DNA of 64,000 nt from Candidatus Aminicenantes bacterium (GCA_041686095.1 JAWLEN010000001.1:35471-99470); one strand, 5' to 3'. Numbered from the stretch's first letter, positions 9,002 through 53,577 are shown. Numbers and translations: made by a program. Notes: a model not told the origin generated them from the sequence alone.

Positions 9002-9361
9002 TTAAAACAAGATATGAGTGATTATTTCCCTTAATTTATCTTCATCCACAGGTTTTGTCATGTATCCGGCAGGGGATAGGATATTTGCTTTTCTTTCTGT
9101 ATTACTATCTGCAAATCCAGTTAAAAAGACCACAGGAATACTATATTCCCTAGAAATAATCTTTGCCGTTTCGATCCCATCTATTTTGCCTTTGAGTCCT
9201 ATATCCATTATCACTAAATCAAATCTATCCTTTTTGACCATATTCAGAGCTTCTTCTCCTGCGAAAGCAATCTCAGATTCAATTTCTCCAAAACTAGAAA
9301 GAGAGTTTTTCAAATCCAGAGAAACGATACCTTCGTCTTCAACAATCAGTACTTTTTTCAT
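9002..9361 (-). CDS. Stand-alone CheY-like response-regulator receiver domain
   Basis: 119 aa; KVLIVEDE, DLVIMDIGL, and a conserved Lys context (MTKP). Confidence 0.7.
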   Translation of the reverse strand: MKKVLIVEDEGIVSLDLKNSLSSFGEIESEIAFAGEEALNMVKKDRFDLVIMDIGLKGKIDGIETAKIISREYSIPVVFLTGFADSNTERKANILSPAGYMTKPVDEDKLREIITHILF

Positions 9362-9459
9362 GTATTCCAGGATATTTAAATTATGTTTTTATTGCCCCAA
9401 TCATTATATAACTTCACTAACAATAATGGCAAGAAAATAAGTAGATAATGCTGAAACCT

Positions 9460-9933
9460 TTATTCAAATGACTTCACAGCAATGGCTTCTATCTCAACTT
9501 TGACGTCTTTGGGAAGACGTGCGACCTGGACTGCAGCCCGTGCCGGGTAGGGAGGTTTAAAGAATTCCCCATAAACTTCATTCATTTTAGAAAAATCATC
9601 CATGTCCTGTAAAAAAACAGTACACTTAACAACATTATCTAAAGAACATCCCGACTTCTCAATAACCGCCTTAAGGTTTTCCAAGGCTAATCGTGTTTGC
9701 TCCTCCACTGAACCTTTATTCAATTCTCCTGTTTCAGGGTTTATGGCAATCTGTCCTGAGGCAAACACAAATCCATTTGCTTCAATTCCCTGTGAATAAG
9801 GTCCTATGGCTGCAGGGGCTTTTTTTGTTTTGATTTCTTTTTTCATTTTAGTTTTTTCTCCTTTACACGAAAATAAAACAGGGCTGGCTAAAGCCGCACA
9901 CCCTAAGAATATCATGGCTTCTCTTCTTTTCAT
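9460..9933 (-). CDS. RidA/YjgF family protein with N-terminal lipoprotein-type signal (LFSC)
   Basis: [26 protein letters not shown]...[12 protein letters not shown], characteristic of RidA; signal peptide with cysteine. Confidence 0.7.
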
Positions 9934-10019
9934 TTAAGGTGCTCCTATCGCTAGAAAATCATTCTTGTTCCAAAAGGATCAAATCATTGTCGCCTGATTG
10001 CTCTAAATTTAAGATGGAA

Positions 10020-10994
10020 TTAGTATTCTTCAGAAAACAGAGTGACTTTATTCTTTCCTGATTTTTGACTTGAGTGAGCTAAATTTCGAGCTTCTTCCAC
10101 CATAGATTCAATGGTGCTTGTTGATTCTGCCATTACACCTCCCACCGAAATGGTAATATGAATGAGTTTGTCCTCAACTTGAATACTTGATTTTTCAGCA
10201 AGCAGTCTTAATTTATTGGCAATAAGATCCAATTTATGAATATTTACATTACTGAGAATAACTAAAAATGAGTCTTCATCCCATCTTCCTACAAACTCAA
10301 AAAAACGTATATTTTTAGAGATAGTTTTTCCAATCATTTTGATGACTTTGTCCTTAACCACTGTGCCAAAAACATCATTAATGGAATCAATATCATCTAA
10401 AATACAAAATAATATACCCACTGGCAAACCATATCTTTTCATTTCATCCAGTCTGTAACCTAAATTCATCTTAATATATCTCCGGTTGCCTGTTTCAGTA
10501 AGGGGATCGAGCATATTCATATTTTTTAACTCTTTAGGAAGGTGCGGCATACTTACTTTGGGAGAGTATTCATGAAAAGTGATGATAGATCCATCCAATG
10601 AATCGTTTTTGTTTTTTATGGGAAATACTCTCATAAATGCCGGTATTCTAAAGCCCTCTTTATGAAGGATATAGGCCTTGTAGTTTCTTATCACTCTGTC
10701 TTTAAAGCTTTGGATGACAGGGCACATTTCCGCACAAATTTCCAGTTTTTCTTCAGCTCCTTGAATAAGTAGATTTTTTTTGCATTTCTGATTAATCATA
10801 TCTCCGGCTTCATTGCCCGTTAGTTCTTCTAGAGATCTATTACAAAATAAAATGTTTAAATCTTTATCAATAACACAGGCGGCTTCATAAGCATTATCAA
10901 GCAAGTCTATGAACAGATCTTTTCTCCCTCTGTCGATCATATCTTTTAATTTTTCTTCTGATTTTGTTTTGTTTTTTTGATCTGTTTGATGCAT
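10020..10994 (-). CDS. PAS domain protein with degenerate GGDEF domain (RWDEDSF in place of RxGGEEF)
   Basis: N-terminal PAS-like (IDKDLNILFCNRSLEELTG); C-terminal GGDEF fold (DPLTETGNRRY ... VGRWDEDSFLVIL), but the GG[DE]EF signature is replaced. Confidence 0.6.
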   Translation of the reverse strand: MHQTDQKNKTKSEEKLKDMIDRGRKDLFIDLLDNAYEAACVIDKDLNILFCNRSLEELTGNEAGDMINQKCKKNLLIQGAEEKLEICAEMCPVIQSFKDRVIRNYKAYILHKEGFRIPAFMRVFPIKNKNDSLDGSIITFHEYSPKVSMPHLPKELKNMNMLDPLTETGNRRYIKMNLGYRLDEMKRYGLPVGILFCILDDIDSINDVFGTVVKDKVIKMIGKTISKNIRFFEFVGRWDEDSFLVILSNVNIHKLDLIANKLRLLAEKSSIQVEDKLIHITISVGGVMAESTSTIESMVEEARNLAHSSQKSGKNKVTLFSEEY

Positions 10995-11169
10995 ATTTTT
11001 TTCAACCCCAAAAATTTTATATCAAACCATATCTATCTTGTCAATAAAGTAATAAACTGGCAAAATCCTCACTTTAATTTCCCGGATTATAGAAAAATAA
11101 AATCTTTTGCATGAAAATTGTTGACAATAAGATAACTTATGGTTATAAAAAAATCAATCGGGGATTTAA

Positions 11170-12201
11170 ATGAAAAAAAAATTGGGAATTAAAATCAGGA
11201 AAGTTAGAGAGTCTCTTCAGCTCACTCAAGAGCAAGTCTCAAAAGGAACCGGACTTTCCAGTGAATTCATATCTTTAATAGAGAAAGGGAAAAGATATCC
11301 CAGTATCCAGTCTATTGAAAAAATATCAAACTACTTAAACAAAAATATATCCTATTTTTTTGAAGAAGAAACAGATCCCTTCAAAAGAATAATGAAAGAT
11401 AAAGGGATTACAAGAAGCACTAAATCCGAGCTTAGAACTTTTAAAAAATACTGTGATGAATATTTGCACATGGAAAAAATTTTAGGAAACTCATTGGAAG
11501 AAGCCCCGCTTTATTCAAGTCCTTTGCCTGAAATAATGGCGGCTGAAGAAAGAAAAAGACTTGGTTTGGGAACTCAATCTGTAAAAAATATATTCACTTT
11601 GCTTGAGTTTAACGGTCTGCGTATTCTGAGACAATCCATGAAAACAAACCTAAAAATAGCAGGAGCCTTTGTCTATTTTAAAAACCAACAAGCTGGATTT
11701 GCTTTGATAAACACCAATCAGAGTTATGCCAAGCAGATCATCACAGCAGCTCATGAATACTGCCATTATCTTAAAGACAGGGAATTCATTTCGCTCATAG
11801 ATAACACCGATATTTTTGTTGACGAATACCTGCCTTTATATCCTTCCAGAGAAAAATTCGCCCATTTGTTTTCTCTTCATTTTTTAATTTCCGAGGAGCA
11901 GATCAATTCTTTCATGAATAAAGAGTTTCACAAAAAAGATAAGAAAATAGAGAATATAATTATACTGAAAAGATATCTTGAAATGCCTATGGAAATTGTC
12001 CTAAAAACTCTGCTTAGGATGAAACACATATCCTCATCTGAATATAATGAATACAGCAAACAAAGATATTTGGAGTATGAAAAATCATTATTCGGATATG
12101 TGAAGGCAGAGACAGCTCCTTACAAAAAAAGAACAAAAACAATACCGTCAGATAGATATAAAACTCTTGCTGTCCAAGCTTATAAAGACCAAAAATTTTA
12201 A
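11170..12201 (+). CDS. XRE-family HTH fused to ImmA/IrrE-type zinc metallopeptidase domain
   Basis: N-terminal HTH (IRKVRESLQLTQEQVSKGTGLSSEFISLIEKG); HEXXH at AAHEYCHY. Divergent from the PAS-GGDEF gene. Confidence 0.65.
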   Translation: MKKKLGIKIRKVRESLQLTQEQVSKGTGLSSEFISLIEKGKRYPSIQSIEKISNYLNKNISYFFEEETDPFKRIMKDKGITRSTKSELRTFKKYCDEYLHMEKILGNSLEEAPLYSSPLPEIMAAEERKRLGLGTQSVKNIFTLLEFNGLRILRQSMKTNLKIAGAFVYFKNQQAGFALINTNQSYAKQIITAAHEYCHYLKDREFISLIDNTDIFVDEYLPLYPSREKFAHLFSLHFLISEEQINSFMNKEFHKKDKKIENIIILKRYLEMPMEIVLKTLLRMKHISSSEYNEYSKQRYLEYEKSLFGYVKAETAPYKKRTKTIPSDRYKTLAVQAYKDQKF

Positions 12202-12468: not shown

Positions 12469-13918
12469 CTAACTCTGCTAACAAGTTGATTAAAAATTTC
12501 CAAAACTTTTCAACCGTGCCTATATGAATTCTTTCGTCAGGTGAATGGGGGTGTTCAATAGTGGGGCCAAAAGATATCATATCCATTCCAGGAAACTTTT
12601 CTCCAATGATTCCGCATTCAAGACCCGCGTGAACAGCAGCCACCTGGGGCTCTTTATCAAAGGTGTCTTTATACACTTTTTTTAAAGTCTTGAGCAGCTC
12701 TGATTTAAGATTAGGCTTCCAACCTGGGTATCCTTCCTCTCGAGTGATCTCTGCTTGAGCCATATTGACAATGGCGTTGATGGCATCTCTTGTGGCTTCA
12801 AGGGCTGATGCGGTAGAGCTTCTGGTGCTGCATATGATTTGAATTTTATCCTTTTTGGTGTTGACCACAGCAAGATTAGTAGAGGTTTCCACAAGACCCT
12901 CTATTTCAGGGTGCATTGAAACAACACCATGGGGGACCCCAAAAATAAGATTTATTATTTTATCCTTTGCATCATCAGCAATGGCTTCTCCAAGTTCATC
13001 ATTGTATTGTTCTAGGGTGTATTTTGCATCTGGTTCAATGGGCTTGTATTCGCTTTTTATTTCGTTGAATTTGTTCTCAATTATTTCTTTAATCCTATCT
13101 TTATCTTCTGATTTGATTCCTAACACTGCCGCGGATTCTCTGGGTATAGCGTTACGGAGATTGCCTCCTTCTATATGAAACAACTGAAAGGAAATACTCT
13201 GAGATACATTCCAAAGTATTCGTGACAACAGTTTTATGGCATTTCCTCTTCCTAGATTTATATCGATTCCTGAATGACCTCCTTTAAATCCAGACAACTT
13301 TAATTCATATATTTCATCACTGGTGTTTTTTTCTGTTTCAAATGGAAGGAAAATCTGACTGTCAGCCCCTCCAGCACAGCCGATAGTGAATTCACCTTCA
13401 TCTTCACTATCCAGGTTTAGAAGCCTTTTTCCTTTTAGAAATCCCTCTGGAATCTGAGAAGCTCCAGTCAAACCGGTCTCTTCTTCTACAGTAAATAAAA
13501 ATTCTAAAGGAGGGTGCTTGATATCATCATTTTCCATAATTGCTAAAGCAGCACATCCTCCGATCCCATTGTCAGCTCCAAGAGTGGTTCCTTTTGCCTT
13601 CACCCACTCTCCATCTATTTGTGTTTTTATAGCGTCTTTTTTGAAATCATGTTCCACATCTGAATTCTTTTCACACACCATATCCAAGTGACCCTGGAGT
13701 ATCACTCCTACAGAATCTTCACTTCCTCTAGACGCTTTCTTAGAAACAACAACGTTTCCTACATCATCTCTTTTATAATCAAGATTAAGGCGTTTTGCCA
13801 CTGATATAATATAATCTCCAATAGCTTTTTCATTTCCTGAACAATGCGGGATCTTTAGAAATTCTTGAAAATGTTTCCATAAAATCGGGGGCGCCAAATC
13901 AGTTAAATCTTTAGCCAT
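12464..13918 (-). CDS. pepD: Aminoacyl-histidine (Xaa-His) dipeptidase, M20 family
   Basis: 484 aa; LWKHFQEFLKIPHCSGNEKAIGDYI N-terminus and HLDMV motif typical of PepD. Confidence 0.7.
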   Translation of the reverse strand: MAKDLTDLAPPILWKHFQEFLKIPHCSGNEKAIGDYIISVAKRLNLDYKRDDVGNVVVSKKASRGSEDSVGVILQGHLDMVCEKNSDVEHDFKKDAIKTQIDGEWVKAKGTTLGADNGIGGCAALAIMENDDIKHPPLEFLFTVEEETGLTGASQIPEGFLKGKRLLNLDSEDEGEFTIGCAGGADSQIFLPFETEKNTSDEIYELKLSGFKGGHSGIDINLGRGNAIKLLSRILWNVSQSISFQLFHIEGGNLRNAIPRESAAVLGIKSEDKDRIKEIIENKFNEIKSEYKPIEPDAKYTLEQYNDELGEAIADDAKDKIINLIFGVPHGVVSMHPEIEGLVETSTNLAVVNTKKDKIQIICSTRSSTASALEATRDAINAIVNMAQAEITREEGYPGWKPNLKSELLKTLKKVYKDTFDKEPQVAAVHAGLECGIIGEKFPGMDMISFGPTIEHPHSPDERIHIGTVEKFWKFLINLLAELA

Positions 13919-14122
13919 TTATATCCTCCAATATTTTTTATTTATATATCATTTTAATCATGGCATAAATAAATCAGATAAGCAAGGAAAAATCATCCAT
14001 AGACAAAGCTCTAGAGCAGGCTGATTTTTTTAATTCAGATACTTATAGAAAAATGATGGATAGTCCCACTTATCTATCCAACCGCTAACATTAATATAGA
14101 GTGATTTTTTCTATTAAAATAA

Positions 14123-14659
14123 CTATTTTTCAATATTATCTAACGTTCCTTCAAAAACAGAGAAAGATTTATCTCCGTATAAACACAAAATGATCTCTTT
14201 TGGATATTCATGTTTTTTCAGGAAATCCAAACATGTTTTTATCATGATCTCACTGCACCGTTTTATGGGAAATCTAAAAATCCCAGCACTTATGGCAGGA
14301 AAGGCAATATTTTTTAATTTTTTCTTTTCAGCTATTTCCAGGCTGTTGCGAGTGGCTTTCCTCAGCTTTTCGTCTTCATTTCCTTCACCATATACAGGGC
14401 CGGCAGCATGGATAACATATTTGGCTTTGAGTTTTCCAGCACCTGTAATGACGGCTTCACCCACCTCAATGGGGCCAATTGAATTGCATTCTTCTTGAAT
14501 GGAAGGCCCCCCAAAACTGCGAATAGCTCCAGCCACTCCTCCCCCAAGTATTAATGACTTATTAGCTGCATTGACTACCGCCTCTGCATCAACTAAAGCA
14601 ATGTTTCCTTCAATCAACTTGAGTGCTTTTTGTCCTTTTCTCCATTCTTTCATTCCCAT
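14123..14659 (-). CDS. Macro domain protein (ADP-ribose / O-acetyl-ADP-ribose processing, YmdB-like)
   Basis: VDAEAVVNAANKSLILGGGVAGAI and GPVYGEGNE motifs. Confidence 0.7.
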   Translation of the reverse strand: MGMKEWRKGQKALKLIEGNIALVDAEAVVNAANKSLILGGGVAGAIRSFGGPSIQEECNSIGPIEVGEAVITGAGKLKAKYVIHAAGPVYGEGNEDEKLRKATRNSLEIAEKKKLKNIAFPAISAGIFRFPIKRCSEIMIKTCLDFLKKHEYPKEIILCLYGDKSFSVFEGTLDNIEK

Positions 14660-14699
14660 CTCCCCACAGAAAAATTTTTTATTATTATATCAGATTATT

Positions 14700-16181
14700 C
14701 TATAACTGCGAATTATTTTGTGCCTCTTTTTTTAATTTATATTGGAATACACCTTCATTGTTATAGATCTCTACTTCTTCAAATTCTTTGATATAATCCA
14801 AAACAACATCTTTGTCTCCGACCACCACAACCACAGGGTTTAAGAAATTAACATTCTGGAAAGTATTAAATACAGAATTTGAGTTAATATACATGATATT
14901 TTCGTAATAATTTCCCCAGTAAATTTCTTTCATATCTAAGGCAACCATTTCCGATATCCTTAATGAAAAATCACTGTGTTCTGAAATTTTAACGGGAAAA
15001 TGACCAATCAAATAGGATTTTGCCTGCTCGATCTCATGATTGGGTATTTTATTCTCAATCAAACTTCTTATTTCTTTTAATATCTCTTTGATAGAAGGAT
15101 ACAAATATTCTGTTTTTACTTTAGCCTTGACATAAAACAATTCACAATTTTTAAATAGTTCTATATTGCTGAATGCCCAATAAGCATAACCTTTTGTTTC
15201 TCGAAGATTCATAAAAAGTCTGCTTATATGAGATCCTCCTAGTATTTGATTGAACACCAAGTATGAGAAATGGTCCTCAGTGTCTTTGTGAGGAAGGATA
15301 TTCCCAATAAAAATGATGGCTTCTTCTGTATTAGAAACATCGGTGAAGCAAATCTTTGGCTTTGTTATTGCAGGAGGAGGATTGATATGATAAGTTTCGA
15401 GCGATTTTTTTTGCCATAAACTGAGATGCTGTTCAGTAATACTTACAGCCTGGGAAGGGGAAATATCACCAATAATCAAAAGCTTTGCATTATTAGGCCT
15501 GTAAAACTTATCAAAAAATGTTAACAAGTCTTTTCTTGTTAATCTCTTTATAACACCACTATTAAACACATATTTTTCATAAGGGTGGTTATTGAAAATA
15601 ATTTGAAAGAGCAGTTTTCTCCCTAAATGTTCTGGATTCGTATTTCTTATAATCTCATAAAACATATCTCTTTTGACATTATTGACTTCATTTTTTGAGA
15701 AATCAGGTTGAGTCAGCAAATCACTCAAAAGCTTAACTGCTTCACTCAAGTAATCTTTGAGAAAAGTGATTGAAAATAAAGAATAATCAGGATAGGTTCT
15801 TACAGAAACGTCTCCTCCAATGAATTCGATTTGTTCTTGCACTTGGGAAGATGATAAGCCCACCGCTCCTTTAAAAAGCATGTTGGCTGTAAAACTAGCT
15901 AAACCTGGAAGGTGGTCCGGAGACAAGCTTTCTCCAGTCATAATGATTAAATGCATATCAATATAAGGCTGTTGTTTTGGAACCACTGAAATTTGCAGTC
16001 CGTTCGATAAGGTAGAGGTCTCAATGGCAGGCATATTTAAATCAGGTAAAGGATAGGGAAGCGGAGGCGATTTCCGGAATTTTTCCTGGGCTTCCACAGG
16101 AGATGTCAAAAATAAAAAAACAAAAAGAACAAGTAAAATTGGCAGATTAAAAGATTTGCTTTTTCTTTTTTTTATCTTCAT
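14700..16181 (-). CDS. M16 (insulinase/pitrilysin) family homolog lacking the HxxEH zinc site; signal peptide
   Basis: M16 fold signature around ...LASFTANMLFKGA (expected HFLEHMLFKG). There is no HxxEH anywhere in the 493 aa. N-terminal signal peptide. Confidence 0.6.
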   Translation of the reverse strand: MKIKKRKSKSFNLPILLVLFVFLFLTSPVEAQEKFRKSPPLPYPLPDLNMPAIETSTLSNGLQISVVPKQQPYIDMHLIIMTGESLSPDHLPGLASFTANMLFKGAVGLSSSQVQEQIEFIGGDVSVRTYPDYSLFSITFLKDYLSEAVKLLSDLLTQPDFSKNEVNNVKRDMFYEIIRNTNPEHLGRKLLFQIIFNNHPYEKYVFNSGVIKRLTRKDLLTFFDKFYRPNNAKLLIIGDISPSQAVSITEQHLSLWQKKSLETYHINPPPAITKPKICFTDVSNTEEAIIFIGNILPHKDTEDHFSYLVFNQILGGSHISRLFMNLRETKGYAYWAFSNIELFKNCELFYVKAKVKTEYLYPSIKEILKEIRSLIENKIPNHEIEQAKSYLIGHFPVKISEHSDFSLRISEMVALDMKEIYWGNYYENIMYINSNSVFNTFQNVNFLNPVVVVVGDKDVVLDYIKEFEEVEIYNNEGVFQYKLKKEAQNNSQL

Positions 16182-17512
16182 TTGGATTTAATCTCTATTA
16201 GAACATTATTTTCTGTAAAATATCTATTCATGATCCCAACAATTTCCGAGGCACTCACATTTAAATACTTATCTAATTCTCCTCCTAAGTCCCGGATATC
16301 AATTTTAGATAAGTAATTCCTAATCAGAAACAAAGCTCTTTTTTCAGGAGAATAGTAGTTATCTATATAATCTGCCTTGAATATATTTTTCACCTTATTT
16401 AGTTCCCTGTTTGAAATCAAAGAAGACTTTAACTTATTAATTTCTGATAACAAAGATTTCTTTGCGATTTCTTTGGTAGCCTCATTATTAGAAAGAACAA
16501 AAAATTTAAATACAGCTAAGTCTATTCTTTTTTCTATTCCCCCGTTAAGCATGAGAGCAAGTTTGTTTCTTTCAATCAATCTTTTGTAAAGACGAGAACT
16601 CTCTCCATGAAGCAATAAATAATCGATCATAGTCATAATGTAAAAATCATTAGAATATGGAGAATCAAGCCTATAGCCCAATCTAAATCCCGGAGTTGAA
16701 ACATTTTTATTTATGATTATTTTTTCATGCTTTTCCTGTTTGAAATCTCCCTTAAAAGATGGAGCCAAAGGTATATTTTTAGATGGATCTATAGTATGGA
16801 AGTATCTTTTTATTAAACGGAGTGTTTTTTCTTGGTCGATATCTCCAGTAATACACAGAACCGCATTGTTAGGCTTATAAAAAGTGTTATAAAAATCCCT
16901 CACATCTTTTAGAGTGATGCTTTTTAAATCCTCTTCATTTCCCAAAATGAGATGGTTGTAAGGAAATTCAGGGTAAAGCAATCGGTCAAATTCCTGCAAA
17001 CTCTTCAGAAAAAGATCTTCCTTTTTTTGAGTTCTTATCATTTCCATGAGCAAATTTTTGGTCTCCTCAACATTTGCATAATTTAAATTCAGAGAATTCA
17101 TCCTATCTGATTCAAGCCACAATACCAGAGGAAGCTGGTTAGAAGAAACTGTTTGATAAAAGAGAGTTTTGTCCCAGGATGTAAGGGCGTTAAACTCACC
17201 TCCTATCCTTTGGATAAATCTTATGTGCTGCATAGGGCCCACGTTTCTTGATCCCATAAACATCAGGTTTTCCAATAAGTAGGTCATTCCAGTTTTGCCT
17301 TTTTCCTCATAAGCTGAGCCCACTTTATAAGCACAAGCTACCGTAACCAGAGGGAGAGTGTGGTCTTCAGAAAGAATAATAGTTAATCCATTTTTAAGGC
17401 TATATATGGAAAAATGGAAGGGCTCTTGGACTTCTATTTGCTTGACTTGCGAAAATCCATTAAATACAAAATTAAGCCCCAAACAAAACAGCACTATTTT
17501 TTTTAAATTCAT
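16178..17512 (-). CDS. M16 family homolog, also lacking HxxEH (YLLEN instead); signal peptide
   Basis: GMTYLLENLMFMGS aligns to the HxxEH-MxFxG region of M16. A 4-nt overlap with the downstream M16 gene suggests a heterodimer pair. Confidence 0.6.
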   Translation of the reverse strand: MNLKKIVLFCLGLNFVFNGFSQVKQIEVQEPFHFSIYSLKNGLTIILSEDHTLPLVTVACAYKVGSAYEEKGKTGMTYLLENLMFMGSRNVGPMQHIRFIQRIGGEFNALTSWDKTLFYQTVSSNQLPLVLWLESDRMNSLNLNYANVEETKNLLMEMIRTQKKEDLFLKSLQEFDRLLYPEFPYNHLILGNEEDLKSITLKDVRDFYNTFYKPNNAVLCITGDIDQEKTLRLIKRYFHTIDPSKNIPLAPSFKGDFKQEKHEKIIINKNVSTPGFRLGYRLDSPYSNDFYIMTMIDYLLLHGESSRLYKRLIERNKLALMLNGGIEKRIDLAVFKFFVLSNNEATKEIAKKSLLSEINKLKSSLISNRELNKVKNIFKADYIDNYYSPEKRALFLIRNYLSKIDIRDLGGELDKYLNVSASEIVGIMNRYFTENNVLIEIKSK

Positions 17513-17580
17513 TATTGGTTTAAATAGTTTTCATTTAATTATCATTAACTATTAAGCATAATATAAGAGCGGATCAAAGT

Positions 17581-19995
17581 TCAAGGCTTTCCCAGGGAAA
17601 CATCCTCTATGATCGGAATGAGCAATTCTCGTAATTCTTTATTCAAAGTATTATCCAAAAGCTCTATTGCGTAGGCTGTGGAATCTTTAGTTCCGCTCTT
17701 GATATTCTGATAAGCTTTCATCATGTCATCTTGAGAATAGATAAGACCGAGAAGTTTAAAAATATCGCTTAAAGAATTGGATAATTCTTTTTCTTCTTGC
17801 TCTCCTAACTCAGTATAAGTGAATTGCAGCTGAGAATGTTTTTTTATTTTTTTCAATACATAGGATTTAATAAACGGAACATCAAAATTTAAATCTGGTT
17901 CTTCTGAACAGATTTTATCCAGTGAGTCAATGATATCATCTTCAAGTTCATCTGGGCCCTTTTTAAGATTTTTTATAAGGATATCTACAGCCTGCTGACT
18001 GCTCTCTTTGGATAAGATCCTAACTATACCTTTCTTGATCTGAATATCTGTACTCGAATCTTTGAGGCTTTTCTCCAAATAGGGGAGAGCTGTTTTTCCA
18101 TATTTGGTTAAGGCTGTGATGGAATCCTCCGTGAGAGGGGGATTCCTCAGTTTTTCAATAAGAAGAGGTATAAATTCTTTTTTCTTCAATTTAGCAGCGC
18201 TTTCAATAGCGTATCTTGATATTTCGGGGGAATTGTCTTTAATGAGTGCAGGGAGTTTACTGACCAGCGGAGAATCTGGAGCCATAAGACCAATAGCTTT
18301 GGCCACCTCCATTTTCTCTATCTCTGTTTCCTTGCTTTTATCCATGACTCTATCTGTATATTTTTCCATCAATTCCTGGTAAGACTTAAGGGACATCACT
18401 TCATTGATATTTGTTTTAAGGTCTTTTTTTGTTTCTTTGTCCTCTGATATATAGGCCCAGGAACCTCCCTCTGCTCCAAAAAGAGCATCATAGGAAGAGG
18501 CTTTTGCTTCTTCTGTTTTTTCAGAAATGATTTTTTCCAATTCCGGAGTTAATTTATCCTGTCGGATCAAATCAAAAACATGCATGGCATAGAGAATTTC
18601 ACTTCTTTTTCGGCTCTCTAGAGTATCAAACACCAATTTAGTGTAATCCAAATCCACGGTGTCAGAAACAGATTTTTCAGCGCGGTTCCATTTTCTTTGT
18701 ATACTCTGTTTAATGACATTAAGATAGCCCCTATTTATTCTAAGGCTGATCAGAATCCATATGGCGATAAAAACAAGAGAGACAAGGCTTATAAACTTTA
18801 CTTTAATTTCAAAATAGATAAATACAAGGGTCACCAAAGCGCCTATTCCCCTGGCAAAACGCTGTAGGAACATATCTATAAACACTTTGGCTTTATATCT
18901 GAGTTCAGGATCCACAGGAATATAGAGAATTTCTCTGATCGACTGATTCACAGAATAGGAAAGGCTTTTATCACTTGCCTTGATAGCCGCACCAAAAAAT
19001 ATTATAGGAAAAAACAAGATTCCGATTGACAAAAAGATAAGAATCAGAGGACAAAAAAGCAAAGCCCCTCTGACTCCCAAGTTTTTGATCAATTTCCCGG
19101 TAATAAAAATCTGAAACAGGAAAGCAAAAACCATGACTCCGGCATTAAACAGTCCATAAAATGAAGCGAGATTACGTTCTCCTGTGATGTTATTATATAC
19201 AATCGAGTTGAACTGAAAATCAATCAGCAAAGAAACAATAAAAGTGACAGAAACGATCAGAGCCATTAAATAAAGATAAGGATTATTCCTCACACAATCC
19301 CAACATGATTTAAAACTAATTTCAGAGGCTGGATTTATTTTTTCTTTTCTTTCAACAGTATCTTTTTTTTCTTCAGATAAATCATCTTTATAATTTTTAA
19401 AAATCAGGCTGGCTATAAAAAAACACAGGAGCAGCATAAAGGCTGATATCAAAAATAAATAGTTATAAAGAAAAGTACCCGCAGAAAATTTAGTTAAAAG
19501 ACCTCCTAACAATCCACCCAAAATCCCTCCGCTTCCTATGAAGCCAATGATCTTTCTTATTTCTCTTGGATTAAACACCTCATTGGCTACCAGCCAGAAT
19601 TGAGTCATGAGAACAGAAATCAAGATATTGACCCATATCCAATTTGCTAAAGGAAACCATCTTAATTCTGATAGAAAAAGAAAATACAAAGCAATATTTA
19701 TGAATGAAAAAAAGACAAGACTGGACAAGATTAATTTTCTTTTCGCAATCTTAGCCTGAAATTTGGCGTGCAGGACCACCACGATTCCAGCAATCAAAGC
19801 GGTTAAAAGATAGGCATAAGGGAGATGATCTTTTCCCAGTTTGTCAATGAAGTCCGCATTTCTAACAGACTTCATTATGGTGAAAGGAGCTGTGATTAAA
19901 AAGAAATACAAAAAAAGATATATGGATAATCTTCTTTTTTCTTGACCTATATTTATGAATCTAAATGTGAATTTTCTAAGCATATTTTCACTCAC
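17581..19995 (-). CDS. Fusion protein: TLC/Npt-like (ATP:ADP antiporter family / MFS-like) membrane domain + C-terminal HEAT-repeat domain
   Basis: 804 aa. The N-terminal ~430 aa has about 11 TM helices and a TLC-like start (LFLYFFLITAPFTIMKSVRNADFIDKLG). The C-terminal ~350 aa is hydrophilic with repeated alpha-helical HEAT/PBS-lyase-like units (AIESAAKLKKKEFIPLLIEKL...). Confidence 0.5.
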   Translation of the reverse strand: MSENMLRKFTFRFINIGQEKRRLSIYLFLYFFLITAPFTIMKSVRNADFIDKLGKDHLPYAYLLTALIAGIVVVLHAKFQAKIAKRKLILSSLVFFSFINIALYFLFLSELRWFPLANWIWVNILISVLMTQFWLVANEVFNPREIRKIIGFIGSGGILGGLLGGLLTKFSAGTFLYNYLFLISAFMLLLCFFIASLIFKNYKDDLSEEKKDTVERKEKINPASEISFKSCWDCVRNNPYLYLMALIVSVTFIVSLLIDFQFNSIVYNNITGERNLASFYGLFNAGVMVFAFLFQIFITGKLIKNLGVRGALLFCPLILIFLSIGILFFPIIFFGAAIKASDKSLSYSVNQSIREILYIPVDPELRYKAKVFIDMFLQRFARGIGALVTLVFIYFEIKVKFISLVSLVFIAIWILISLRINRGYLNVIKQSIQRKWNRAEKSVSDTVDLDYTKLVFDTLESRKRSEILYAMHVFDLIRQDKLTPELEKIISEKTEEAKASSYDALFGAEGGSWAYISEDKETKKDLKTNINEVMSLKSYQELMEKYTDRVMDKSKETEIEKMEVAKAIGLMAPDSPLVSKLPALIKDNSPEISRYAIESAAKLKKKEFIPLLIEKLRNPPLTEDSITALTKYGKTALPYLEKSLKDSSTDIQIKKGIVRILSKESSQQAVDILIKNLKKGPDELEDDIIDSLDKICSEEPDLNFDVPFIKSYVLKKIKKHSQLQFTYTELGEQEEKELSNSLSDIFKLLGLIYSQDDMMKAYQNIKSGTKDSTAYAIELLDNTLNKELRELLIPIIEDVSLGKP

Positions 19996-20018
19996 AGATG
20001 CCGATTAAAAGAATGCGG

Positions 20019-20366
20019 TTATCCTTTTGAAAAGCTTTCCAATGCTTTTTGTTCATCACTAAATATATCTAAGACTTTTGATAACATAGTGACTTGGAAT
20101 ACAAGAGAAAGCTTTTTCGATATATTTGTGAGTTTTAAACTTCCCCCTACGTTTTGAGTTGAGATATAACTGGCAAGTATTTCACCCACCCCGAAACTGT
20201 CAATAAATTCCACTTTTTCCAAATTTAGAAGAAATTTTCTTTTGTTTTGATCAAGATGATCTTTAATCATTTGATGCAGAGTAACGTCAGAGGCTTCAGA
20301 TCTTCTGATCTCTCCTTTGACATCCAATATGGTGACTTCTTGTTTCTCTCTGATGTTTATTTTCAT
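20019..20366 (-). CDS. STAS-domain anti-sigma factor antagonist (SpoIIAA/RsbV-like)
   Basis: 115 aa; EFIDSFGVGEIL contains the conserved Ser (DSxG) phosphorylation site. Confidence 0.7.
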   Translation of the reverse strand: MKINIREKQEVTILDVKGEIRRSEASDVTLHQMIKDHLDQNKRKFLLNLEKVEFIDSFGVGEILASYISTQNVGGSLKLTNISKKLSLVFQVTMLSKVLDIFSDEQKALESFSKG

Positions 20367-20428
20367 CTTTTCATCTATAAGCTTTTATCAAAACAATAGT
20401 TATAAGTCAATATTTTAACATTCTCTTT

Positions 20429-21046
20429 TTATATTAACTCTTTATCTTTTAAGAATTTATAAATAATCTTTGTGCTTTCTTTGATGCTGTATTTTGACGT
20501 ATCTATGATAATTTCAGGATAGAAAGGTTCTTCATAAGGAGCAGATATCCCCGTGAATTCCTTGATCTCTCCTTTTCTTGCTTTTTTATAAAGTCCTTTG
20601 GGATCTCTTTTCTCAGCAATTTTTAGGGGAACTTTTAAAAAAACTTCAATAAATTTACCTTTTTCCAAAAGCGCACGGGCTTTATCTCTGTCCCTGCGGT
20701 AAGGAGATATAAAAGCAGTCATGGTGATGATACCAGTCTCAGAAAAAAGTTTAGCTACCTCTCCTATACGCCTAATATTCTCTTCTCTATCTTCTGGAGA
20801 AAATCCTAGATTTTTGTTTAATCCGTGGCGGATATTGTCTCCATCCAGAACGACAGATAGTTTTCTTTCATAAAAAAGTTTTTTTTCCAAGGCATGGGCC
20901 AGTGTTGATTTTCCGGATCCAGACAATCCTGTGAACCAGATAACAATTCCTTTCTGATTGAGGAGCTTATTTCTATCTTCTCTGGTGACATCGCCTTTGT
21001 GCCAGGTAATATTGGTTGCTTTTTGAACGGTCATGGTGTTCTCCAT
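20429..21046 (-). CDS. cysC: Adenylylsulfate (APS) kinase
   Basis: [15 protein letters not shown]-loop and NITWH motif. Probable start is MENTMTVQ at 21046, 8 nt after the sat stop; the ORF track extends to 21088. Confidence 0.85.
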
Positions 21047-21053
21047 TTGTATC

Positions 21054-22232
21054 TCACTTTGAATGCCCAGATTTTTTGTAGTAATCAATCAAAATTTGAG
21101 CCACTTCGGGCCGGGTGAATTCTTTAGGCGGCATCTGGCCTTTTGAAAGCATTTCTCTTACTTTGGTGCCGCTTATAAGAACTCGATATTTTTTATCATG
21201 GGAGCAGGTCTTCATGGATGCCATTCCATCACATTTATGACACCAAAAAGTCCAGTCAATATTAAGAGGCTGAATTTTCAGTTCTCCGGGTTTTATTTGA
21301 GTGAATATTTTCTGAGCATCAAAAGGACCATAATAATTTCCCACCCCTGCATGGTCTCTTCCTATAATGAGATGAGTACATCCATAATTCTGCCTGAATA
21401 TGGCATGAAGCAGAGCTTCCCTGGGACCTCCATACCTCATCTCCATGGGATATACTTTGAGAACCACTCGTTCCTTAGGGTAATAATTTTTAAGAAGGAC
21501 TTCATAACACTTCATCCTTATATCAGCAGGTATATCATCTGCTTTTAACTTTCCTACTAGAGGATGAATCAAAATCCCATCAGTCAATTCAAGAGCGATT
21601 TTTGTGCAGTATTCATGACTTCTATGAATGGGATTTCTGGTCTGAAAAGCAGAGATTGTTGACCATCCCTTTTTTAAAAATATTTCCCTTGTTTCGGCAG
21701 GTCGAGCATAATAAGATCCATATAATTCAGGATAAGGACCCTCACTCAGAGCTTTCACGGGTCCTCCGAGGAGAACCTCATGTTGTTGAAATACTTTTTT
21801 TACGCCTGGATGAGCCTCATCTTTGGTGAAAAAAACCTGCTTAGCTTCATATTCCTTATCATAGCTGTACTTATCTTCAACCTTCATAAGACCCATTAAG
21901 TTGCTGCTTTCATCATCTATGAGCGCGATTTCTTCTCCTAAAGTAATATGATCAGCTTGTTGCTTGGTGACAGACAAAGTGATAGGAATAGGCCAAAGAG
22001 TCCCGTCAGATAAATGCATATTATCCATAACTTCTTTATAGTCTTGTTCTTTCATAAAGCCGTACAGGGGACTGAATGCGCCTATGGCCATCATAATAAG
22101 ATCTGACGTCTCACGGGAGGATAGCCTTACCTCGGTAAGAGTCTCTGCTTTTTTTTTGTATTCTTCTGATTGTTTTCCTTTAACCAGAAGAGGCCGAAGT
22201 TTTCCCCTATGAGGAGAGATAAGTTGACTCAT
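21054..22232 (-). CDS. sat: Sulfate adenylyltransferase (ATP sulfurylase)
   Basis: [11 protein letters not shown] and GRDHAGV motifs; 392 aa. Confidence 0.85.
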
Positions 22233-22324
22233 GTCATTTTTCTCCTATAACTATCAACCTGAACTCATGAATAATCCATGTTAATATTTTTTTGTTTCAA
22301 CCGCCTGTATATAGATCCACGAGA

Positions 22325-22726
22325 TTAAAAAGACTTGCTCATAAGAAGAATATTTTGATTTTTTTTTCGTTGGTATTCAACACTGTTCATAAGGCTCCTT
22401 ATGAGAAAAACACCTAAGCCTCCTTTTTTTTCCTTGTCTATTATTTCTGATATATTGGGTTTTTTAATGCTTCTGGGATCAAAAGGAATCCCGTCATCCT
22501 TTATCTCAAAAAAAACTTTATTTTTTTCTATCCAGCTTTTTAGATAGATAGTGCCTTTGTTTTTTGGATAAGCATACTTAATGATATTGATACATACTTC
22601 TACCAGGGACAGGTCCATAATATAGTAGTCTTTCTCAGACACATCTTTTTCCTTAAGAATTTCCTTTAAAAAAGACCGGACTTTTTTAAGTTCCGACAAA
22701 TCGCTTTTAACTTTCAAAGTTTTCAT
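22325..22726 (-). CDS. Anti-sigma regulatory factor Ser/Thr kinase (RsbW/SpoIIAB-like HATPase)
   Basis: 133 aa; EVCINIIKYAY (N-box) and GGLGVFLIRSLM (G-box) of the HATPase_c_2 type. Confidence 0.65.
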   Translation of the reverse strand: MKTLKVKSDLSELKKVRSFLKEILKEKDVSEKDYYIMDLSLVEVCINIIKYAYPKNKGTIYLKSWIEKNKVFFEIKDDGIPFDPRSIKKPNISEIIDKEKKGGLGVFLIRSLMNSVEYQRKKNQNILLMSKSF

Positions 22727-22805
22727 GATATTCAGGCTTTATCTTTTATCATGAAAATTGTCTTAATTCAACCTGCTCATCCAAGAATCTCTTATGCAGT
22801 TTAAT

Positions 22806-22938
22806 TCGGAAGTATTTCTAAAAACCGTGATACAGGTGATGAATAATATTTATTAAAGGGAATCGATCGGGTGACGAATCCCTTGCCCTTCCCCTTATCT
22901 GTCAAGTAAACTCTATCACGTTTTTTAGAAATACTTCC
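22806..22938. mobile_element. MITE-like palindromic repeat, family A, short copy 1
   Basis: Terminal inverted repeats GGAAGTATTTCTAAAAACCGTGATA ... TATCACGTTTTTTAGAAATACTTCC, flanked by 8-bp direct repeat AGTTTAAT (22798-22805 and 22939-22946). Shares a core with the copies at 31.9, 43.8, 46.7 and 55.7 kb. Confidence 0.75.
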
Positions 22939-23089
22939 AGTTTAATCCCTATAATTGAAATAATATTCTTAATATGATAATGTCTTTATTTATTCCAGCC
23001 TTTTATTACCTGGATAATTCATAAATAGATTTTTTTATGGGTCATCCAGATTTACAACTGGATTGATACCAGAAAGGAGTATCATAATT

Positions 23090-24250
23090 ATGAGTAAAGA
23101 CGGAATACATCTTTTCACTTCTGAATCTGTAACTGAAGGCCATCCAGATAAAATTTGCGATCAAGTTTCTGATGCCATCCTGGATGATCTGATCAAAAAG
23201 GACCCTAAGAGCCGGGTTGCCTGCGAGACACTTGTGACAACCGGGATGGTGATCATAGCCGGAGAAATAACAAGCGAAGCCTACTGCGACTTCCAGCAAG
23301 TGGTCAGAGATACAGTCAACGAGATCGGATACAACAGCTCAAAATATGGATTTGATTATGAGACCTGCGGGGTGATGTCTTCTATACATGAGCAGTCTTC
23401 TGATATTGCCAGAGGGGTGGATGAAAGCAAAAAACGGGAACAGGGAGCTGGAGACCAGGGATTGATGTTTGGATATGCTTGCAGTGAAACCAAAGAACTG
23501 ATGCCCCTTCCTATTATGCTGGCTCATAAACTAGTCAAAAGACTGACTCAGGTAAGGCGCGAAGCAATATTGGATTACATACGTCCTGACGGAAAGTCTC
23601 AGGTCACAGTAGAATATGATGGAGACACCCCTAAAAGAATCGATGCTGTGGTTATTTCTGCCCAGCATGAACCCAATGTAAAAATGAAAGATCTACGAGC
23701 TGATGTTGAAAATAAAGTTATCCGTGAAGTCATCTCTGAAGATATGCTGGATAAAAATACAAAATTTTATATCAATCCCACAGGCCGATTTGAGCAGGGT
23801 GGACCGTTTGCAGACACTGGAGTGACCGGCCGTAAAATCATTGTGGATACCTACGGCGGCATCGGAAGTCATGGAGGAGGGTGTTTTTCAGGAAAAGATC
23901 CATCAAAAGTAGACCGGTCCGGTTCTTATATGGCCCGCTACATCGCAAAAAATTTAGTGGCTGCTGGAATTGTTGATAAAATCGAAGTTCAGATTGCCTA
24001 TGCCATTGGAGTTGCTGAACCCGTTTCCATCATGGTTGATTCCTTTGGAACATCAGATGTCCAAGAAGATAAAATAAAAGAACTCATCAGGGCGCATTTC
24101 GAACTCAAACCCAAAGGAATGATCAGCACCTTAAATCTTTTGAATCCGATCTATAAAAAAACAGCTGCCTACGGTCACTTTGGGCGAAACATATTCCCAT
24201 GGGAAAAGACTGATAAGGCAGAAGCACTGAAAAAAGATGCCGGACTTTAA
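23090..24250 (+). CDS. metK: S-adenosylmethionine synthetase
   Basis: [20 protein letters not shown] motifs. GGAG RBS precedes the ATG at 23090. Confidence 0.9.
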
Positions 24251-24267
24251 TTTTTTCGATATTGATT

Positions 24268-24525
24268 AACCTGACCTATTCATAAAAAAATGGCGATGTT
24301 TTTATTATCAATTTATTTTCAGCGATATACAAGGTTTTTTCAAAAATGACGATTGAAACTATTTTCCTGTTTAGGTATTTTATTTTAATCGCCATTTTTT
24401 TACCATTGAGGCGAGCCGATCTCACTGCATCTGCTTCGTTACAGGGCATTCGTAGTGAAGGACCACGACTTCATACCCTGTGCCTTGCATCTGCAGCAAC
24501 CTCGACTCGTGAATAATCCAGGTTA
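24268..24525 (+). mobile_element. MITE-like repeat, family B, copy b
   Basis: About 95% identical to the inverted copy at 12208..12468. It lies between the metK stop and the ahcY start. Confidence 0.7.
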
Positions 24526-24576
24526 AATAAAAAGATTTGTTATATAAACAGAAATAATAAACAAGAGGAGTATCCA

Positions 24577-25833
24577 ATGAATTATGACGTCAAAGATTTA
24601 AGCCTTGCCGAAAAGGGCCAACTGCGTATGGAATGGGCAGCAAGATTTATGCCCGTTCTTGCAGACATAAAAGAGAAATTCAGGAAAGAGAAACCTCTGG
24701 ATGGGGTAAGAATATCTGCCTGTCTTCACGTAACCAGTGAGACAGCTAATCTTATGGAAACTTTGAAAGAGGGAGGAGCCAAAGTTGTTTTAACCGCTTC
24801 CAATCCATTAAGCACCCAAGATGATATAGCAGCTGCCTTGGTCAAGAAGCATGAAATCTCTGTTTTTTCTATAAAAGGGGAGGACAATGAAACCTATTAT
24901 AAACACATCAATCAGGCATTAGATAATAAACCTCAAATCACAATGGATGACGGAGCAGACCTGGTAAGCACTATCCATTCCCAAAGAAAAGAACTCCTCC
25001 GGAATATTATAGGAGGAACTGAAGAAACCACTACTGGGGTTATCCGCTTAAAAAGCATGGCTGCGCAAAAAGTTTTGAATTATCCAATTATTGCAGTCAA
25101 CGATGCCAAAACAAAACATCTGTTTGATAACAGATATGGGACCGGTCAAAGCACTATTGACGGAATATTAAGGTCTACCAATATACTGATTGCCGGGACC
25201 AATTTTGTTGTTTGTGGCTATGGGTGGTGTGGCAGAGGAGTCTCCTTAAGAGCTAAAGGAGCCGGAGCTAAGGTCATTATATGCGAAGTGGAACCACTTA
25301 AAGCTTTAGAAGCGGTCATGGATGGATTTCAGGTCATGCCTTTGGAAAAAGCAGCTGAGATCGGAGATTTGTTTGTGACTGTGACTGGAGATAAAAACGT
25401 TCTGTCAACCCAGCACTTTGAGAAAATGAAAGATGGAGCCATTGTGGCTAATTCAGGACATTTCAACGTTGAGATCGACATACCAGCTCTTAATAAAATG
25501 TCCAAAGGAAAAAGAGACATCAGAAAGTTTGTGGAAGAATTTACCCTTAAAAACGGAAGAAAAGTCTTTCTTCTTGCCAACGGACGCCTTTTAAATCTCT
25601 CTGCAGCCGAAGGCCATCCAGCTTCTGTTATGGATATGAGTTTTGCCAATCAGGCCTTGAGCGCTGTCCATCTTTATAAGGAAGGAAATGTCCTTCAGAA
25701 AAAAGTATATCCAGTGCCTTTAGAAATTGATGAGGACATTGCTTTGAGAAAATTAAAGTCCATGGGTGTTCAAATAGACAGCTTAACTGAGGAACAAAAA
25801 AAGTATCTGGCGGGATGGGAAGAAGGAACCTGA
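24577..25833 (+). CDS. ahcY: Adenosylhomocysteinase
   Basis: 418 aa with a GYGWCGRG (core GxGxxG) NAD-binding motif and a typical SAHH N-terminus. Confidence 0.9.
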
Positions 25834-37183: not shown

Positions 37184-37328
37184 CTGCAGCTCTTTATTAT
37201 ATTCATTTTTATGAATGAGGTAAATATATTTATCCGGATCAATTCCTTTAATTTTCTTAATGCAGCTCGAATATCTAAATTTACAGATTTTCTTGACATG
37301 TTCCTTTGATATGATTAATTTTTTAGCC

Positions 37329-53576: not shown

Positions 53577-53577
53577 A

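Follow-up and report, generated by a model that had tools for sequence, protein, structure and literature searches.

On balance, we read an eight-gene block of a Candidatus Aminicenantes genome as a class-wide Aminicenantia locus that was compacted in one lineage and comprises at least two functional units, and its functional core as a partner-switching phospho-switch that would be dedicated to NTT-HEAT transporters and gate them via their HEAT domain. The further proposal that such gating, and not a sigma factor, is the direct output of the switch across the whole class is drawn from sequence comparison and is more tentative. The gene content, conserved motifs, synteny, promoter-like element and transporter architecture on which this reading draws are seen in the sequences. 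We found no published description of a link between STAS proteins and NTT-HEAT, and the initial annotation of the block had likewise not recognised a described system. If correct, the reading would give the first regulatory and functional handle on the widespread orphan NTT-HEAT family.

The eight-gene block and its surroundings

The block lies in a stretch of 64,000 nucleotides (64 kb; hereafter the window) whose source genome belongs to Aminicenantia (Acidobacteriota) and is not that of a chlamydia-like intracellular bacterium. ORF calls and searches with Pfam and NCBIfam profiles returned eight minus-strand ORFs, with exactly the coordinates and domains of the initial annotation. They are given here with a promoter-like element and the neighbouring genes.

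23063–25833, plus strand: metK and ahcY (Pfam), divergent from the kinase gene
22325–22726, minus strand: RsbW/SpoIIAB-like serine protein kinase (GHKL, HATPase_c_2), 133 aa; PF13581, 97.9 bits
21054–22232, minus strand: sat, homo-oligomeric ATP sulfurylase (PUA_2 and ATP-sulfurylase domains); NF003166, 560 bits (cutoff 387); TIGR00339, 428 bits (cutoff 323)
20429–21088, minus strand: cysC, APS kinase; NF003013, 290 bits (cutoff 163); TIGR00455, 275 bits (cutoff 139)
20384–20410, minus strand: sigma-70-like promoter-like element TTGACT-N14-TGATAAA (-35, 17-nt spacer, extended -10) between cysC and the STAS gene, ending 17 nt before the ATG of STAS
20019–20366, minus strand: single-domain STAS protein (anti-sigma-antagonist type), 115 aa, predicted phospho-acceptor Ser57; PF01740; TIGR00377, 65 bits (cutoff 53)
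17581–19995, minus strand: NTT-HEAT fusion, a 12-TM NTT/TLC-like MFS transporter with a HEAT-repeat C-terminus; Pfam MFS_1, TLC (partial) and HEAT_2
16178–17512, minus strand: M16 non-peptidase homologue a, secreted, YLLEN replacing HxxEH; Pfam Peptidase_M16 and M16_C
14700–16181, minus strand: M16 non-peptidase homologue b, secreted, SFTAN replacing HxxEH; Pfam Peptidase_M16 and M16_C; 4-nt overlap with the preceding gene
14123–14659, minus strand: macro-domain protein (ADP-ribose binding/hydrolase type); PF01661, full-length, 138.8 bits (cutoff 22)

From the kinase to the macro gene, the successive gaps are 92 bp, an overlap (or 7–19 bp), 62, 23, 68, -4 and 40 bp. These are the short gaps described before (0–92 bp), with the overlap of the M16 pair in addition. 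The cysC gene probably starts at ATG 21046 or 21034 and not at TTG 21088, because its homologues in relatives are 199–204 aa long. No minus-strand terminator was predicted in the intergenic gaps of the block in the window clade. The eight genes occur in identical order in seven independent assemblies, which excludes an assembly artefact.

The block would comprise a first unit with the RsbW-like kinase gene followed by sat-cysC, for PAPS synthesis, divergent from metK-ahcY, and a second that would begin at its own promoter-like element and run through STAS, NTT-HEAT, the two pseudo-M16 genes and the macro gene. The metK/ahcY-kinase-sat-cysC layout recurs in 12 loci. A Pfam scan of nearly every other ORF of 100 aa or more in the window, except shorter ones overlapping longer ones, found no cysH, cysI, cysDN, sulfate permease, sulfotransferase or PP2C gene in the 64 kb, and phmmer and Pfam searches found no PP2C/SpoIIE phosphatase there. 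No sigma factor sits beside the module: the window's only sigma-70-family gene (53992–54840) belongs to a dnaK-dnaJ-MerR cluster at a distance of 31 kb.

A core of STAS, transporter and phosphatase genes

We compared the window with 79 related loci from about 80 uncultured Aminicenantes genomes, all of one class. The conserved core begins with STAS, continues with one NTT-HEAT gene or two and ends in a gene for an FHA-GAF-SpoIIE phosphatase. In 65 of 72 loci the STAS gene immediately precedes NTT-HEAT on the same strand, at a median distance of 32 bp; leaving out two truncated loci and a case in which ORF calls overlapped gives 66 of 70. Two tandem transporter paralogues separate STAS from the phosphatase in 49 of 80 loci, and in the tree the window transporter belongs to the STAS-adjacent ‘copy 1’ clade of these paralogues. 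The flanks of the core vary, with Metallophos, PilZ, an RpoD-like gene or cysC upstream of STAS, and M16, PMT_2/TPR, AroM or Peptidase_S9 downstream of the phosphatase.

The initial annotation stated that no PP2C accompanies the module. This is true of the window clade but not of its relatives, since 54 of 65 loci carry the FHA-GAF-SpoIIE gene directly after the transporter (median gap 44 bp). In the tree, the window gene falls within a single-copy clade, and three sister lineages of that clade keep the phosphatase, so that the absence of the phosphatase from the window clade is a secondary loss. This lack of a phosphatase in cis counts against the reading that the switch gates the transporter.

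The switch proteins

The STAS protein is the most conserved of the set, with a median identity to the window copy of 66%, versus 53% for the kinase and about 45% for the transporter. It aligns end to end with SpoIIAA (1th8/1tid), Ser57 matching the phosphorylated serine. Across 66 orthologues its motif VEFIDSFGVGEILASYIS shows a conservation of at least 90%, and the phospho-Ser lies within a DSxG motif. TTGAC-N15-TGATAAA occurs once in the 64-kb window, versus 0.02 times expected by chance, and in 34 of 66 loci the same element, with the same internal spacing, precedes STAS by 16–130 nt, regardless of the upstream neighbour. This suggests that the element functions as a promoter and that STAS is probably the first gene of its own transcript.

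The best solved relative of the kinase is Bacillus subtilis RsbW (6m36), and its N-box (E..N..YAYP), G1 (D.GiPFDP) and G2 (GGlG) motifs are kept in 34 orthologues. It scores far below the NCBIfam RsbW and SpoIIAB equivalog cutoffs (53 vs 145 bits) and is thus an orthologue of neither. A profile HMM recovered exactly one kinase orthologue per locus (E 1e-61 to 1e-71), on the same strand as STAS and 2.3–8.9 kb upstream of it, with or without sat-cysC nearby. The conservation of the phospho-Ser and of the kinase boxes argues for the original proposal that the two proteins are a partner-switching pair. In most genomes, kilobases of sequence separate the kinase gene from STAS, which counts against a dedicated switch.

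The NTT-HEAT transporter

The transporter has a membrane domain, a disordered acidic linker of ~45 residues and a C-terminal, cytoplasmic HEAT-repeat domain. The NTT/TLC and HEAT profiles expected of the NTT-HEAT fusions of Major et al. 2017 both match above cutoff (PF03219, 51.7 bits, cutoff 21; PF13646, 36.1 bits, cutoff 27.7), membership being judged by domain content and structure match. The sequence profile matches alphaRep/HEAT proteins as well as C. pneumoniae NTT1 (9j3n, E 8e-23). In the AF2 model, residues 18–443 contain the TM helices, 492–536 are of low confidence and 536–797 form a helical repeat (pLDDT about 90); Foldseek matched the model best to NTT1 (9j3n and 9j3l). The chlamydial/plastid ATP/ADP translocase NTT1 is thus the best profile and structure match of the membrane domain, but it shares only 16–20% identity with the window protein and lacks a HEAT domain. 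The canonical NTP/NDP exchanger model, TIGR00769, gives 45.5 bits against a cutoff of 387.2 and matches just at model positions 140–360, which counts against the gating reading. Of the TLC/Npt-like transporter-HEAT fusion first proposed, the domains are there, but the TLC match is partial and far below the NTT cutoff. The AF2 model and the MFS topology place the HEAT domain in the cytoplasm, in the same compartment as the STAS protein and the kinase.

Many free-living bacteria have NTT-HEAT proteins, as do cyanobacteria, chlamydiae and oomycetes; none has been assigned a substrate or role (PMC5381601), and they have the same NTT/TLC-like membrane domain and C-terminal HEAT repeats as the window protein. 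A precedent for the proposed regulation comes from other phyla, in which a regulatory cyclic-nucleotide-binding domain is either encoded just downstream of NTT-HEAT or fused to it (Major et al. 2017, PMC5381601), in the position that the GAF-containing phosphatase has here. Neither STAS nor anti-sigma proteins appear in that paper (0 occurrences), whereas the regulators of the present locus are STAS upstream, GAF-FHA-PP2C downstream, and the kinase.

A proposed switch and its possible outputs

We propose that the kinase would use ATP to phosphorylate STAS on Ser57, and that a PP2C phosphatase would reverse this. In most relatives the latter would be the product of the FHA-GAF-SpoIIE gene after the transporter; in the window genome it is presumably encoded elsewhere or lost. 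The phosphorylation state of STAS would decide whether STAS or the kinase docks on the HEAT domain, turning transport on or off. We infer both the role of the HEAT domain as docking target and the direction of regulation. An RsbW-type kinase needs a supply of ATP, and the switch could thus tie nucleotide exchange to the energy state. The class-wide packing of STAS, NTT-HEAT and PP2C would give the HEAT domain a role, that of docking a phospho-switch, and suggests that transport is regulated post-translationally in the NTT-HEAT family.

The Bacillus modules RsbU/RsbV/RsbW-sigmaB and SpoIIE/SpoIIAA/SpoIIAB-sigmaF have the same three types of proteins: STAS, GHKL kinase and PP2C/SpoIIE phosphatase (the last present here in the relatives). 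Unlike them, the locus lacks a SigB/SigF-type sigma gene, its genes wrap one or two transporters, its phosphatase has FHA and GAF input domains and its kinase gene is kilobases off. Partner-switching modules are increasingly found with non-sigma outputs, as in HptB-HsbR-HsbA of Pseudomonas, which acts on the diguanylate cyclase HsbD, BtrU/V/W of Bordetella and SypE/SypA of Vibrio. In these systems, STAS, kinase and PP2C control a non-sigma target by protein-protein binding, and we propose the same here. To our knowledge, none of them targets a transporter or a HEAT domain, and as far as we searched no transporter target has been described for such modules; here, unlike there, the gene of the candidate target sits between those of STAS and the phosphatase. 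Transporters with STAS elements are known: MlaB is the STAS unit of the MlaFEDB ABC transporter. SLC26/SulP proteins carry a C-terminal STAS domain (PMC8256260). In both, the STAS fold is a cytoplasmic accessory or regulatory element of a transporter, as proposed here. They belong to other transporter superfamilies, and we know of no switching of either by an RsbW-type kinase and a PP2C.

The output could instead be classical, with the kinase sequestering an RpoD-like or alternative sigma factor encoded elsewhere, STAS freeing it, and NTT-HEAT being co-transcribed cargo or part of the regulon. The closest relatives of the kinase and STAS proteins, RsbW/SpoIIAB and SpoIIAA/RsbV, are indeed anti-sigma systems, and the Rsb switch of Chlamydia is reported in PMC4552016 to act on the primary sigma factor. 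An RpoD-type sigma gene (505–518 aa, TIGR02393 above cutoff) divergent from STAS in 12 loci of two clades would fit such an output. We nevertheless consider it unlikely, because just 12 of the 66 loci with STAS have such a gene within the sequence compared, and neither the window locus nor most others have a sigma gene beside them; nor would this output explain why a transporter gene, or a pair of them, always lies between the STAS and phosphatase genes.

The comparison is confined to one class, and some of the synteny could therefore reflect descent and not selection. At the extreme, slow rearrangement of Aminicenantia genomes would alone account for the gene order, and the switch would serve an unrelated target. 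The housekeeping neighbours metK, ahcY, plsY and gpsA are also syntenic in close relatives. However, at 38–50% protein identity the core still has the same gene order and very short gaps, although its flanks were repeatedly rearranged. Furthermore, four loci have lone transporter paralogues without STAS, showing that STAS adjacency is not forced by the transporter gene family. These observations make inherited synteny an improbable explanation, and they fit a switch dedicated to the transporters.

sat-cysC as an optional companion of the kinase gene

In Bacillus-type sulfate activation, the gene of a homo-oligomeric ATP sulfurylase is followed by that of an APS kinase. The window has the same pair, but its neighbours are metK/ahcY and the switch kinase, with no cysH, cysP or cysJI nearby. 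For assimilatory sulfate reduction, ATP sulfurylase and APS kinase are thus present, both above their NCBIfam cutoffs, whereas genes for PAPS/APS reductase, sulfite reductase and sulfate uptake are absent from the window and from the 10 kb around the locus in six annotated relatives. The Pfam scan confirms the absence of cysH/cysI and sulfate permease reported at first. It also shows that the 64-kb window lacks flanking genes of the cysH/cysDN type, whose presence the initial annotation had named as grounds for dropping its model. Sulfotransferases are found neither in the window nor in the six annotated relatives, and nothing in the window supports the suggested sulfation pathway for an exported product.

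The pair follows the kinase gene in 12 of the 33 loci where a kinase was found, and in 11 of the 41 STAS-positive loci with at least 9 kb of upstream sequence. The other 21 kinase-bearing loci lack it, yet retain STAS, NTT-HEAT and the phosphatase. Where both are present, 6–768 bp separate the kinase gene from sat, and 330–768 bp in four lineages. Outside the window clade, a four-gene block on the opposite strand lies between sat-cysC and STAS, which therefore cannot share a transcript there; in most relatives this block parts the kinase gene (and sat-cysC, if present) from STAS. The ‘bracketing’ of sat-cysC arose when the window clade lost the four-gene block, the phosphatase and any second transporter copy. 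Hence, sat-cysC accompanies the kinase gene as an accessory and stands outside the switch; what looked like a designed circuit is the product of deletions in one clade.

These results contradict the initial view of sat-cysC as an integral, bracketed part of the switch: its occurrence in 12 of 33 loci, the opposite-strand block and the promoter-like element between cysC and STAS all speak against it. The check proposed at the time, conservation of the order RsbW-sat-cysC-STAS-TLC/HEAT, gave a mixed answer, as seven assemblies share the order and the STAS-transporter linkage is wide, but sat-cysC is optional. Synteny does not support coupling of APS/PAPS to the STAS switch. A single eight-gene system in which APS/PAPS from sat-cysC is sensed by, or coupled to, the switch and the transporter, with APS/PAPS as the transported substrate, or which sulfates an exported product, is thus highly improbable, even if kinase, sat and cysC are contiguous in seven other loci and the window clade at 42–50% transporter identity, the gaps of that clade are at most 92 bp and free of predicted terminators, and NTT relatives carry adenine nucleotides.

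The M16 homologues and the macro-domain protein

The HxxEH motif is absent from both M16 proteins, in agreement with their description as homologues without zinc ligands, and the substitutions are conserved (YLLEN in 21 orthologues and SFTAN in 19). Both have N-terminal sequences that by eye resemble signal peptides. The gene of homologue a follows the phosphatase gene in 14 relatives. The macro gene is linked to the block by synteny only; in relatives it is found 3' of the M16 pair at a variable distance, once on the opposite strand.

The eight-gene block of the window

The initial annotation had described eight minus-strand ORFs, in which an RsbW-like kinase and a STAS protein bracket sat and cysC. 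ORF calls, Pfam and NCBIfam recovered all of them, with their domains, at exactly those coordinates (sat and cysC far over the curated cutoffs):

22325-22726, minus strand, RsbW-like GHKL kinase
21054-22232, minus strand, sat
20429-21088, minus strand, cysC
20019-20366, minus strand, single-domain STAS protein
17581-19995, minus strand, MFS/TLC + HEAT protein of 804 aa (NTT-HEAT transporter)
16178-17512, minus strand, M16 homologue
14700-16181, minus strand, M16 homologue
14123-14659, minus strand, macro-domain protein

The genes are spaced by -4 to 92 bp, and the true start of cysC is probably an ATG inside the called ORF. The M16 homologues had been read as devoid of zinc ligands, and the HxxEH motif is indeed gone from both, replaced by YLLEN and SFTAN, as it is in their orthologues. 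Pfam scans of the other ORFs of the 64-kb window revealed no cysH, cysI, cysDN, sulfate permease, sulfotransferase, or PP2C phosphatase, in agreement with the earlier remarks on reductases and permease. The sole sigma-70-family gene of the window lies 31 kb from the block, behind dnaK-dnaJ-MerR. A search of the window and six related loci with Rfam for riboswitches or leader RNAs returned only tRNAs.

A conserved core around the transporter in Aminicenantia

We compared 79 loci, one genome per species and all from the class Aminicenantia, which were searched with the window proteins and one relative's phosphatase after ORF calling. All transporter homologues listed, and all genome loci, belong to metagenome-assembled genomes of Candidatus Aminicenantes/Aminicenantia; a chlamydia-like intracellular genome, which we had suspected, was thereby ruled out. 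The eight genes occur in identical order, with divergent metK-ahcY, in seven independent assemblies (transporter identity 74-78%), so the arrangement is real.

Among the 72 loci with sufficient upstream sequence, 65 have the STAS gene immediately 5' of NTT-HEAT and in the same orientation (median gap 32 bp); of the other seven, four are lone paralogues, two lie on truncated contigs, and in one the ORF calls overlap. On the 3' side, 54 of 65 loci have a gene for an FHA-GAF-SpoIIE (PP2C) phosphatase next to the last transporter gene, with a median gap of 44 bp. The transporter gene is a tandem pair in 49 of 80 loci, and the neighbour-joining tree separates these tandem copies into two old paralogue clades, one adjacent to STAS and the other to the phosphatase. 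With the kinase profile, we identified a single strong orthologue per locus; all match at E 1e-61 to 1e-71 and lie on the same strand as STAS, 2.3-8.9 kb 5' of it. The kinase gene is followed by sat-cysC in 12 of the 33 kinase-bearing loci. The STAS-transporter-phosphatase core remains intact while its flanks vary by lineage, with Metallophos, PilZ, an RpoD-like gene, or cysC on the 5' side and an M16 pair, PMT_2/TPR, AroM, or Peptidase_S9 on the 3' side.

Some genomes carry additional NTT-HEAT loci: two of these have STAS and the promoter-like element described below, with no phosphatase (L049, L056), and lone copies lack both STAS and phosphatase (L038, L040, L046, L069). In the tree, the transporter and phosphatase on contig DATKXS010000036.1 (L067), which is labelled Candidatus Desulfaltia sp., group tightly with those of the Aminicenantes loci L074, L042, and L061, and the taxonomic label or the contig binning is therefore possibly wrong; alternatively, the module was transferred between lineages.

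Secondary compaction in the window clade

In most relatives, all outside the window clade, a conserved block of genes on the opposite strand separates the kinase region from STAS, whether sat-cysC is present or not. This block, absent from the window, encodes two or three proteins of ~270 aa without Pfam match, a TLC-only transporter of ~465 aa, and a metallophosphoesterase, for example at these related loci:

L084:3576-9243, opposite strand
L085:2223-8550, opposite strand
L086:5268-9519, opposite strand

Together with tandem NTT-HEAT genes, it brings up to three TLC-type transporters into a 12-kb region.

The window transporter is of the STAS-adjacent type and falls in a single-copy clade of the neighbour-joining tree. 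Its sister lineages (L012, L017, and L011/L013/L072) show the order kinase-sat-cysC, opposite-strand block, STAS, transporter, phosphatase, M16-M16. Both the opposite-strand block and the phosphatase were lost from the locus in the window clade, which brought kinase-sat-cysC into contact with STAS-transporter-M16-M16. The bracketing of sat-cysC, initially read as a possible regulatory module, is thus a secondary compaction and not an ancestral design; the synteny from kinase to transporter holds in the seven close assemblies, but in most other relatives the opposite-strand block intervenes. In search of a relocated phosphatase of the window clade, we used the L012 phosphatase as query and found 6515 Aminicenantia homologues at E<=1e-30; the best non-self matches had 77-75% identity and the next <=55%, and no match was attributable to the window clade.

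A promoter-like element upstream of STAS

The alignment of STAS upstream regions exposed a conserved element, TTGAC-N15-TGATAAA, with the features of a -35 box and an extended -10 box separated by a 17-nt spacer. It lies <=160 bp 5' of STAS in 34 of 66 loci, regardless of the next gene upstream. In the window it has a single match in 64 kb (0.02 expected by chance), inside the 62-bp gap between cysC and STAS:

20384-20410, promoter-like element TTGAC-N15-TGATAAA

From the conservation of this element ahead of STAS, we infer that STAS heads its own transcript, with read-through from cysC being possible. A generic scan of positions 13900-23100, whose -10 rule overlooked the element, found promoter-like sites no commoner than chance, and a terminator scan of the same region placed no minus-strand terminator within any intergenic gap.

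The transporter and the switch proteins

The family profile of the transporter matches Chlamydia pneumoniae NTT1 (9j3n) across the membrane domain (E 8e-23) and designed and natural HEAT repeats at residues ~550-705. The AF2 model (pLDDT 72.8) has twelve transmembrane helices (18-443), an acidic linker at low confidence (492-536), and a helical-repeat domain that is modelled with confidence (536-797); its closest structural neighbours are NTT1 ATP/ADP translocators, ahead of generic MFS proteins. The MFS topology and the positive-inside pattern place the HEAT domain in the cytoplasm. The protein scores far under the curated cutoff for canonical NTP/NDP exchangers.

The disordered linker (residues ~488-545, window ~18361-18534) contains a conserved SS(L/M)(G/D)xL(F/L)E, an acidic stretch, and EIMSLDxYQ. 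Both paralogue clades have this motif, which may be a site of docking or phosphorylation. Docking of the phosphatase FHA domain on a linker phospho-threonine was rejected: the threonine should be conserved with the phosphatase and lost in the window clade, and the linker alignment has no such pattern.

The STAS protein aligns end to end with SpoIIAA, with Ser57 on the phosphorylated serine, and the surrounding motif is >=90% conserved in 66 orthologues. Its median identity is the highest of the set (66%, versus 53% for the kinase and ~45% for the transporter). The kinase retains the N, G1, and G2 boxes, and among solved structures RsbW is its closest relative. Judged by sequence, both switch proteins look functional.

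A putative switch acting on the transporter

Gene content, conserved motifs, and synteny are what the analysis shows; from them we infer the following mechanism. The kinase would phosphorylate STAS Ser57 and the PP2C phosphatase would reverse this, and either the phosphorylated or the unphosphorylated partner would bind the HEAT domain, gating transport. In relatives, the phosphatase bears the input domains GAF (small-molecule) and FHA (phospho-threonine). RsbW-type kinases respond to ATP supply, as established in B. subtilis, and by analogy the switch could therefore couple a nucleotide-type transporter to the energy state. MlaB, too, is a STAS unit that goes with a transporter. Another such unit belongs to SLC26/SulP (PMC8256260), and the logic of both systems parallels that of the proposed switch. 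NTT-HEAT fusions are a monophyletic, widespread, and uncharacterised family, and in other phyla a cyclic-nucleotide-binding domain is fused to them or encoded next downstream (Major et al. 2017, PMC5381601), again a parallel logic. That study mentions neither STAS nor anti-sigma proteins. Our literature search, which covered NTT-HEAT proteins, partner switching linked to transporters or HEAT domains, and partner switching in Aminicenantes, found no published description of STAS or partner switching associated with an NTT-HEAT transporter, and the papers on Chlamydia Rsb do not support a suspected adjacency of chlamydial rsbV1 to a chlamydial NTT-HEAT gene. Partner-switching modules and NTT-HEAT transporters are each already known; what is new is their combination, with evidence from one class.

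Could the switch have a classical anti-sigma output instead? We find this doubtful. The switch proteins resemble that family, and 12 loci, which fall into two clades, have an RpoD-type sigma gene divergent from STAS, but most loci lack any sigma gene and transporter genes are invariably inserted inside the module. The RpoD-type protein might be the sigma target of the switch or a mere neighbour. These genes encode 505-518 aa, score over the TIGR02393 cutoff, and are found at L053:7898-9415(-), L074:7731-9287(-), L015, L019, L022, L026, L030, L032, L033, L042, L061, and L065; dnaG cannot precede them at the STAS-divergent loci. That the association is pure inherited synteny is decidedly unlikely, because repeated rearrangement of the flanks has left the core intact. 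The coupling of an APS/PAPS pool to the STAS switch and transporter, as first proposed, is most improbable given the distribution of sat-cysC among relatives, the opposite-strand genes between sat-cysC and STAS, the wide spacing of kinase and sat in four lineages, and the promoter-like element inside the eight-gene block.

Other features of the window

The region 50420-55607 encodes dnaK, dnaJ, a MerR-family (HspR-like) regulator, a 282-aa sigma-70-family protein under all NCBIfam equivalog cutoffs, and an IstB/DnaA-like AAA ATPase, and tRNA-Asn comes next (55935-56009); a heat-shock operon containing a sigma factor is unusual. Four class-V aminotransferase/cysteine-desulfurase-like genes occur in the 64 kb (33970-35139, 36041-37330, 38734-40062, and 61625-62785), three of them grouped around a 2-hydroxyacid dehydrogenase and a 4Fe-4S protein. 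Two ORFs overlap head to head by 71 nt (36041-37330 on the minus strand and 37260-38681 on the plus strand). Just past an M20 peptidase, positions 9002-12201 encode a lone receiver domain, an L-PSP/RidA protein, a PAS-GGDEF diguanylate cyclase, and an HTH + M78 (ImmA/IrrE-like) regulator; the M20, HTH-M78, and PAS-GGDEF genes keep their synteny in the close relatives L001 and L003.
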